Positions 54,887 to 57,274 of a stretch of DNA of 64,000 nucleotides are shown here, one piece after another (positions within the stretch are counted from its first letter, which is position 1; each line of letters starts with the position of its first letter). Both the position numbers and the translations under genes were made by a program. The notes under the pieces were generated by a model. The model made no database searches. It was not told where the DNA came from and worked only from the letters and a program-made list of their open reading frames with translations. The DNA lies in contig NC_058368.1 in the NCBI RefSeq assembly GCF_018350175.1, positions 103,976,001-104,040,000 of the forward strand. The letters run 5' to 3'. This DNA comes from Felis catus. Taxonomy: Eukaryota.

Positions 54887-56386
54887 GTTAGTATAATTTT
54901 TTTAAAAGAAAGCTATGCACTTTATTATATATTGTGAATATCAGTCATTTTCAATGTAAGTGTTTATAAATATTTGTATTGTTATCATACCCTTATATGT
55001 TTATTTCCTTCATCGTTGTTCCTAATATTAGTTTCTAAATGCCTCTAAATGACACCAAGTTCCCTTTTCCCCTAAAGACCACTCTTGATGTATTTCTCTA
55101 TACACATATATCTCTCCCACAACCCTATGCTAACGCCTTTTTACCCAGATGTCACCAGAGACCTCTTACAGCTATTCATTTGGAGAGTGTGCCATAATTT
55201 GTTTCAAAGACATATCTTACACCCAAGACCTTTTTTTAAATAAATAATGATTTTTGCACTGTGTACATATCAGTTACCAGTCAGAGACACGTAGAAAAAC
55301 AAGCCTATCAATAAGCTAGTGATTAGAGCTCACTTTGTAGCATCATCAGCACCACATGAGCAGAAACTGAAACATTTACGGCCTGGTCTGGGAGAGTCAA
55401 ACACCCACCATCCCCAGTGGACCACAACTGACAACTTGTCCTTCTCATAAAGCAGATGTGGGGGAGGACAGGCCCAAGACACGTGAGCTGTTAAGGAGGA
55501 TAGCTTGAAGGAACTGGCAGTTTTCCCAATGCACTGCCTTCCTAAGCAAAGACCTTGGGACTGTGTCATAAGAAGGAAAAAGATAATTCCATCCCACTGA
55601 CATTCTGTCCCTTTGACGGGCGATGTCACACCATTCAGGCCACCACAGCGAGGAGTCAGAGAAACACCTTCTTAGGGTCGTGTGACCTAATGAGTTTTGA
55701 ATCATTCTGATTCACGATTATAAATAAGCAACTTTTATATCCATGAAGTCGCTGACTGAAAACCTTTTGTTTTGAGTGGTAGATAGGTTTTATTTAAATA
55801 GTCTCCCTAAAGCCCCTGTCAGGCTTTTAGACAATGACCACATCACAAATACAATGGAAATTCTCCATTTTGCTGGTGTTGGGTCAACAGACTAGCACAC
55901 CACTCTTCAGGTCAGACGTGTTATTTTAATGTTGTTCCCAAATCATAAAGAGTCGTGTCTGGATACACATACTTTGGTAAACACTATTACCCGAATCGGT
56001 ATCACACAAAGCACGATTAAGCAGTGCTCCACTGTATTTCTAGGTTTCTCATTTATAAGAACTTGTTCACGGAGTAGGGAAGGGATTGGGTAGCAGTGAT
56101 CTCCTGTTCAGCGTGATAGGCTAATTCTCAGGAATTCAGACAGAGCCAACATCTCTGATGAAAGCAGCGCGTCTAGAGACATTAGTGAACAAAGACTTAG
56201 TCTTTGTTAAAGGATGGAAGGGATGGGGGAATTCTTGTTTGTTTTTTAAGTTTACTTATTTATTTTGAGAGGGAGAGAGTGCGCATGAGCAGGGGAGCAG
56301 GGGAGGGGCAGAGAGAGAATCCCAATCAGGCTCCGCACTGTCAGCACAGAGCCCAATGCAGCGCTCGAACTCACAAACCATGAATG

Positions 56387-57274
56387 AGTTCAAGTCCTGG
56401 CTACACGTCTCCCTTGGCGTGTGATTGTGACCTAGTGAGTTAGCCTCGCTAGGCCTTAGCTTCCTCCTCTGCGCCAGAAGGCACATATACTACTTGCCTC
56501 AGAGGACCACCATAAGGCTTAAATGGACAATACATTCAATACTAGGGCCATTTCTGGGTAGTTTGGCATGAAAGGCCTGCTTGTACTGTCTCTCTGTTCT
56601 GCTCCTGAGACTTTTTTTTTTTTTTTTTTTTTTTTTAATCAAAAGCATCCTGTCAGGGGCACCTAGGTGGCTCAGTCAGTTAAGTGTCTGGCTCTTGATT
56701 TTGGCTTAGGTCATGATCTCACAGTTCGTGAGTTCAAGCCCCGCGCTGGGCTCTGTGCTGACAACATAGAGCCTGCTTGGGATTCTCTGTCTCCCTCTGT
56801 CTCTGCCCCTCCCCTGCTCACACACTCTCTCTCTCTCAAAATAAATAAATACACATTAAAAAAAAAAATCGTGTCAGGCAGATGTCCTGTGGGAGGAGGA
56901 CCAGTTCTGCCTCTTAGCTGAGTGGTGCCATTTAAATGACTCAGTTTCCCTGAGGCACACTGTCCAGACGAATGGAATGGGGACACCAGTTCCCCGGGTT
57001 ATTTGGGGGATGCTATTTGGGAAGGCACGTGACCAAATGTAAATGGCTGGCTGTACATCGTTGTTGTCACAGTTGTGGAAACACATGCCTTGAACATGAA
57101 GCGATGTGGCATCTTTCAGACTCTTGGGGCTGCTACCGCCCTGGAGAGTTAAGCTTATTTTTACGAAGTCCTAATTTGGCTGGATGGTCGTGTCGCCCTG
57201 ACACTGGCTAAGGATATGCCCTCACGACAAAAAGAGTGATAGGGACAATACCAGGAAGTGGGTCTTTTGGATGT
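56387..57274. repeat. Local duplication of 52543-53406 (inverted part plus direct part)
   Basis: 56545-57274 is a direct copy of 52543-53261 including its SINE; 56387-56539 is the reverse complement of 53254-53406. Near-identical ORFs 52965/56972 and 52801/56874 reflect this. Confidence 0.95.

Follow-up and report, generated by a model that had tools for sequence, protein, structure and literature searches.

An antisense SINE fragment joined to an inverted and a direct copy of an upstream intron segment in a GRAM-domain gene of the cat: a possible case of twin priming on a second template

Introduction

The best described counterparts of the structure considered here are the twin-primed, 5′-inverted L1 elements and processed pseudogenes (PMC12016303; bioRxiv 10.1101/2024.08.27.596794; PMC2912911), which read poly(T), reverse complement of the 3′ part and then 5′ part. 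In the human germline 44 of 106 5′-inverted L1s display an overlap (median 12 bp, quartiles 4–17) and the longer arm is the inverted one, 751 vs 571 bp (PMC12016303), and 17% is the figure given for internal duplication in tumours (bioRxiv 10.1101/2024.08.27.596794). Rare 5′-inverted Alus have also been published (PMC2912911), the frequencies of 5′ inversion in Alus being 1/5554 and 0.02%.

A second group comprises chimeras made on two templates, namely U6/L1, Alu/L1 and mRNA/L1 (PMC13174262; PMC4476161; PMC11702581), in which two sequences are joined in the same sense and arms of opposite sense are ascribed to twin priming. Two-RNA insertions produced by template switching are documented (PMC11702581; PMC13174262), one study containing nine of them and an additional one in which two inverted mRNA pieces surround other cDNAs (PMC11702581). 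A third group is that of the templated insertions and local inversions found at L1 sites (bioRxiv 10.1101/2024.08.27.596794; 10.1101/2024.12.14.628481), in which a truncated retroelement is accompanied by a copy of nearby sequence; the published local templated insertions are ascribed to DNA. Finally, the templated sequence insertion polymorphisms (TSIPs) of classes 1 and 2 (PMC5110952) are intronic copies placed at a new site, with a distant donor left intact and an RNA template proposed; class 1 has a TSD and a poly(A) belonging to the copied fragment itself, whereas class 2 has no TSD and no tail.

Structure of the duplicated block

The window, i.e., the whole stretch of 64,000 nucleotides of Felis catus DNA that was analysed, contains at 56232–57274 a block of 1043 bp composed of a T-rich tail, the antisense 3′ half of a SINE, an inverted arm B and a direct arm A, the two arms being copies of a contiguous segment located upstream. 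The elements of source and copy are the following:

52540–53406, plus strand: source segment with A and B contiguous, in the intron 50749–53788 (self-BLAST and alignment)
53230–53268, plus strand: perfect inverted repeat of 9 bp that straddles the inversion point of the source (repeat search)
53254–53261, plus strand: 8-nt overlap of A and B, the inversion point (alignment)
56232–56262, minus strand: tail of the SINE at the outer end, degenerate and rich in A (in T on the plus strand) (sequence)
56232–56387, minus strand: 3′ half of a carnivore SINE of old type (profile matches and alignment)
56359–56399, plus strand: 15-nt inverted repeat, 80%, across the SINE/B junction (repeat search)
56387–56539, minus strand: arm B, inverted copy of 53254–53406, same sense as the SINE (self-BLAST and alignment)
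56540–56544, no strand: inner junction between B and A (alignment)
56542–57274, plus strand: arm A, direct copy of 52540–53261, inverted relative to the SINE (self-BLAST and alignment)
56656–56868, within arm A: full SINE copied with its own TSD (alignment and TSD search)
56869–57274, plus strand: low-divergence part of arm A, against 52857–53261 (13 mismatches in 405)

Self-BLAST and alignments bear out the direct A and inverted B that the initial annotation had described. Arm A is 91.6% identical to its source over 739 columns including gaps, with 38 substitutions in 713 aligned bases; its source, originally placed at 52543–53261, is confirmed but begins 3 nt further to the left (52540, corresponding to 56542 in the copy) if one mismatch is accepted. 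Arm B matches 53406–53254 with 88.9% identity over 153 bp (E 3e-51; 17 mismatches in 151). Among the 19 self-matches listed with the SINEs masked, the block has no non-repeat match besides the two arms.

A and B follow one another without interruption in the source and overlap there by the 8 nt ttggatgt. This sequence had been noticed as common to both arms at the inversion point and is indeed seen where either arm ends, the copy of B having one mismatch; the copy carries two instances of these 8 nt, one at the outer end of A and one at the inner end of B. Since A and B are contiguous in the source and the 8 nt are doubled in the copy, parsimony indicates that the source is the simple, scar-free arrangement and that the copy is derived. 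Continuity across the A/B boundary of the repeat containing B, which we take to be a MIR, is a weak test: a count by eye against a second old repeat gave 8 vs 6 matches of 14. Read on the minus strand, i.e., in the sense of the SINE, the block consists of A inverted, B, the SINE 3′ half and the A-rich tail, the SINE and B being joined in the same sense; the arm inverted relative to the SINE (A) measures 733 bp and the tail-primed one 308 bp. The source, 867 nt long, lies 2.8–3.7 kb upstream of the copy. On the sequence itself an artefact of assembly was rejected, as it would hardly account for two copies that, leaving the low-divergence tract aside, differ at 42 of 438 sites or for a poly(T) and a SINE with independent changes.

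The host gene

The gene harboring the block encodes a GRAM domain (Pfam PF02893, E 1.8e-9), and the exon 54783–54886 that specifies this domain fixes its orientation on the plus strand. The exons recognised by exon search and alignment are:

50637–50748, plus strand: exon
53789–53855, plus strand: coding exon between source and copy (exon search), which aligns to a distant metagenome locus
54783–54886, plus strand: coding exon with the GRAM domain, between source and copy (Pfam PF02893)
60435–60530, plus strand: exon
63143–63214, plus strand: exon

Both Pfam and Atlas designate the product as “GRAM domain” and nothing more specific; we assume that the gene is GRAMD2B, the name given in the initial annotation. 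A scan of 49 of 64 parts of the metagenome collection yielded three distant loci, whose alignment to the window is restricted to exons and does not extend to the block. The initial annotation inferred that the gene copied a piece of its intron back into itself; source and copy do lie in one gene, but the source is in the intron 50749–53788 and the copy, two exons away, in the intron 54887–60434, so that the insertion occurred two introns downstream and not in the same intron.

Comparison with the described systems

The block shares with the twin-primed elements the order poly(T), reverse-complemented 3′ part, 5′ part, the tail at the outer 3′ end (here degenerate, 56232–56262), inner ends that adjoin with a short overlap (8 nt) and an inverted arm that is the longer one. 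On the other hand, the inversion here affects a second template, the tail belonging to a SINE and the arms to an intron, and according to the profile the source has no SINE after B; furthermore, the tailed element is a SINE and there is no TSD. With the two-template chimeras the block has in common the junction of two same-sense sequences and the opposite-sense arms attributable to twin priming, but its 3′ partner is a SINE, its 5′ partner is an unspliced host intron situated 3 kb away and present in both orientations, and no single TSD surrounds the whole. The lack of a TSD and of a single tailed template places the block outside the canonical classes of twin-primed elements and chimeras.

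Unlike the L1-associated templated insertions, typically shorter than 250 bp and taken from no further than 15 bp away, the block contains 867 nt from a distance of 2.8–3.7 kb, arranged as two convergent arms, and unlike the local inversions at L1 breaks it has left its source intact and not inverted in place. Compared to TSIPs, it has neither the TSD nor the poly(A) on the copied fragment of class 1, and it resembles class 2 in lacking a TSD but differs in having a SINE tail and a local donor. A search of the literature, covering mainly openly accessible papers and the main text of preprints, revealed no published SINE-led, twin-primed capture, over a kilobase range, of a host gene's own intron.

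The templated insertions of MMBIR/FoSTeS likewise have a nearby template, an inversion and no TSD; however, a retroelement tail is not expected and convergent adjoining arms are not predicted by this mechanism, and both are seen here.

A probable single L1-driven event

The arms are ordered and oriented as in twin priming with a plus-strand template, the plus strand being the sense strand of the gene; both arms come from this same strand, and the synthesis primed at the tail ends where the second one begins. A rough calculation puts at ~0.7% the chance that two ends placed independently in 3 kb fall within 10 nt, and at 0.2% when orientation is also considered. The origin that we favour, and to which we give slightly better than an even chance, is a single L1-driven event consisting of target-primed reverse transcription of a SINE RNA, a switch to the host pre-mRNA, twin priming and a target-site deletion.

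In this pathway the L1 ORF2p would nick the plus strand at ~56232 and copy ~155 nt of the SINE RNA starting from its tail; the cDNA would then leave the SINE and resume on a sense-strand template at 53406, proceeding back to 53254 to generate arm B, the template strand being the sense strand of the gene if the SINE cDNA simply continued. Arm A would result from priming by the other DNA end at 53261 of this template, with synthesis running back to 52540. The template would subsequently be removed and the cDNA ends joined with 2–5 extra bases, the loss of target DNA accounting for the absence of a TSD, and part of arm A would later be homogenised with the source via gene conversion. All the component mechanisms are already published; what is unusual about the block is the way in which L1 accidents of known types are combined.

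The truncated SINE

The window contains 68 matches to the SINE profile, which cover 20% of its 64 kb and include old and very young subfamilies. The antisense SINE of the block, with its T-rich tail, starts at ~56232 and stops mid-body at 56383, as had been seen, or at 56387 when the repeated atga is counted as SINE with a 4-nt deletion. It is 5′-truncated just before its B box, the cut coinciding with the junction to B, and its tail points outward. Both this fragment and the full SINE copied within arm A are without the 7-nt motif of the young subfamily (profile) and resemble the feliform subfamily I, dated to ~50 million years, subfamily II being dated from ~35 (PMC4084570).

Only three of the 55 tail-bearing matches in the window are 5′-truncated, the other two belonging to one nested insertion. 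This ordinary case (39442–39815), in which an old SINE is split by a 5′-truncated SINE of opposite orientation with a 15-nt TSD, served as control. A nested insertion into a SINE was considered for the block too and rejected because, unlike at 39442–39815, the 5′ half does not resume beyond 57274, there being no profile match between 56868 and 57917. It was likewise rejected that the fragment had been copied from a SINE in the same transcript, as no partner exists among the 61 other copies of the 64-kb window; the best identities to these are 79–83%, and the duplicated SINE pair matches at 140 of 150 positions.

Target site and junctions

The first TSD search around the block yielded at best 6 of 7 matches, a score within the null of 5–9. 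In a second search, 28 of 30 mismatched pairs scored at most 9 and two scored 14 and 16, these being probably the source/copy pair. As a positive control in this second search, 10 of 14 hand-picked old-type, full-length SINEs, or 9 of 13 independent insertions as two of the 14 are the source/copy pair, retain at least 12 matches, compared to the 6 of the block, so that the earlier statement that there is no convincing TSD stands. The 16-mers of the flanks do not recur elsewhere at up to one mismatch, save for one self-palindrome. The absence of a TSD implies either a loss of target DNA, at insertion or later, or a SINE that was in place before the duplication. Only a minority of germline insertions, 2.3% for Alu and 7.4% for L1, involve a target-site deletion, and short deletions of this kind at Alus are described in PMC4666360. 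The left flank ends with TTCTT, which could be an endonuclease-like half site, the other half being missing. A perfect palindrome of 10 bp with a 1-nt centre is found at 56188–56208, 24 nt to the left of the left junction.

The SINE/B junction displays 1–2 nt of microhomology and the repeated atga, and the B/A junction no microhomology and 2–5 extra nt that repeat the nearby caatac. The 15-nt inverted repeat across the former junction corresponds to the SINE B box facing a motif that resembles a B box and ends arm B and, having been noticed post hoc, would permit a fold-back-aided switch. At the inversion point the 9-bp stem reaches 12 bp if a 3-nt bulge is allowed, and stems of this kind hold 0.7% of the non-SINE positions. 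A strong hairpin at this point was rejected, the fold having a z of −1.7 and 12 of 200 shuffles folding equally well. The stem fits a single-stranded template of either kind and weakens the argument drawn from the coincidence of the two ends.

A rival reading is an L1-independent origin, namely MMBIR/FoSTeS or the capture of a DNA fragment at a break in a pre-existing SINE whose 5′ half and TSD would have been removed. The missing TSD, the proximity of the source and the inverted repeat at the inversion point are in keeping with such an origin, as is the density of SINEs, which today make up 20% of the window; furthermore, the age test described below is blind to events separated by a few million years. 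However, this process does not by itself predict two arms that converge to within 8 nt of each other, or a SINE that has its tail outward and breaks off at the junction, the microhomology at the two readable junctions is just 0–2 nt, and an older SINE is hardly what is expected of a fragment that is among the least diverged of the old copies (2/48 vs a median of 12.5%). We consider this origin improbable and not, as initially proposed, equally open, because the adjoining ends and the tail-outward truncated SINE are left unpredicted; the closer rival is an L1-initiated, DNA-templated event.

Divergence and age

Non-CpG differences between source and copy number 5 in 68 and 0 in 17 in the portions of A preceding the copied SINE, 14 in 188 in this SINE and 10 in 137 in B, giving a pooled divergence of 29/410 or 7.1%, i.e., 3.5% per copy. 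The 405 bp that follow the copied SINE have only 10 differences in 383 (Fisher p 0.005 vs the rest), about a third of the divergence found elsewhere; in this tract 8 CpGs are kept in both copies, compared to none in B, and there is a run of 127 bp without substitution, a length attained in 8 of 100,000 simulations. The two direct copies, separated by 4 kb, have likely undergone gene conversion over this tract, or alternatively the tract could be a constrained element.

When compared to a consensus of 18 old copies, the SINE fragment differs at 2 of 48 non-CpG columns (CI 0.5–14%; 5 of 52 prior to a post hoc recoding of four columns as CpG, the consensus being a mixture of subfamilies), which places it among the least diverged of these copies, whose median is 12.5%. 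Its age, as estimated from these substitutions, would be compatible with the date of the duplication (2/48 vs 3.5% per copy), within a wide interval. The event is old and probably predates the radiation of the cats; judging from the type of SINE, an empty site would be expected only in the earliest-branching feliforms or in caniforms.

An old age leaves time for several events, such as a plain A+B insertion followed by an inversion, with a separate SINE insertion, later or earlier, and a deletion, or a canonical insertion with TSD whose right TSD was deleted later, and the uneven divergence along arm A could reflect separate dates. Nevertheless, the first 290 bp of A and the whole of B are equally diverged (7.3–7.5% non-CpG), and an inversion at a later date would have required breakpoints that coincide with the edge of the insertion as well as a duplication of 8 nt; a succession of events therefore seems to us very improbable.

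Nature of the second template

As to the L1-driven single event, which is the reading that we prefer, the geometry, the strand, the 8-nt overlap and the fit of the SINE age are all in line with what the initial annotation had proposed; the pre-mRNA template is not marked as such in the copy, in which neither a splice junction nor editing is seen, a splice junction being impossible in a purely intronic piece. In the source an opposite-strand SINE is located 350 bp upstream of the copied SINE; no excess of ADAR editing was detected, a single A>G being present among the 9 changes private to the copied SINE, which has 32 A sites. Since edited retrocopies are rare anyway (3/235; PMC11702581), this null result is weak evidence against RNA. 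In arm B the non-CpG transitions consist of 9 purine and 1 pyrimidine changes (p 0.02, post hoc and unpolarised), the differences on the sense strand being, again without polarity, 6 G>A, 3 A>G and 1 C>T; the G>A changes would fit deamination of the first-strand cDNA if they arose in the copy.

Of the structured-RNA families in Rfam, only a U6 copy was found over 50000–60000. This U6 snRNA retrocopy (59300–59441, minus strand), which lies in the same intron as the insertion, has a pure poly(A) of 40 nt and, by eye, a probable TSD of 14 nt.

The second template could instead have been resected single-stranded DNA, the SINE insertion being L1-started in this case as well. The primed end would undergo ~3.7 kb of resection, the cDNA would fold onto the plus strand at 53406 and the other end would anneal at 53261, after which both ends would be extended by ORF2p or by a repair polymerase, released and joined. 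This sequence of steps predicts the same strand, the same side and the adjoining ends, so that the match with the sense strand is one bit of information to which the two templates respond alike. Resection and self-annealing at L1 breaks, involving also the primed end, lead to local inversions and inverted duplications (bioRxiv 10.1101/2024.12.14.628481), and 22 templated insertions of nearby DNA are given for ~3,600 somatic L1s (bioRxiv 10.1101/2024.08.27.596794). The slipped short repeats at both inner junctions are like end-joining scars, and the stem across the inversion point could stop both ends in a DNA process too.

What speaks for RNA is, in the first place, that template size and distance exceed the range reported for DNA templates. 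In the second place, both new strands left their template with the intervening 3 kb and its two coding exons intact; removal of an RNA would entail no extra steps, whereas with resected DNA both strands would have to be displaced and the 3 kb restored, simple completion being expected to delete the two coding exons. A resected-DNA template is, in our judgment, rather unlikely but a serious contender.

Implications

If the template was RNA, the block represents a germline-fixed case of an unspliced transcript rewritten into its own gene and offers a genome-wide test, in which the strand and side of the template are compared with the orientation of the gene or with that of the element. A more general proposition, which we put forward tentatively and regard as doubtful, is that an L1 reverse transcriptase engaged in insertion within an active gene can seize the tethered nascent transcript and twin-prime on it, giving rise to a recurring, RNA-templated duplication of local intron sequence that is now filed under DNA template switching. 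Were this route real, genes would retro-copy pieces of their own upstream introns a few kb downstream, with a template that is always the host sense strand and always upstream of the site as its signature, and regulatory sequence in introns would be duplicated locally in this way. The block itself is one old intronic scar, probably neutral.

Other duplications in the window

Three further duplications were observed. An inverted one of 78 bp (36507–36584 and 36778–36855, ~190 bp apart) is 96% identical and has no SINE at its edges; a tandem one of ~165 bp at 21980–22308 is 98% identical; and a short tandem array of related 100-bp units, ~86% identical, occupies 14630–14931.
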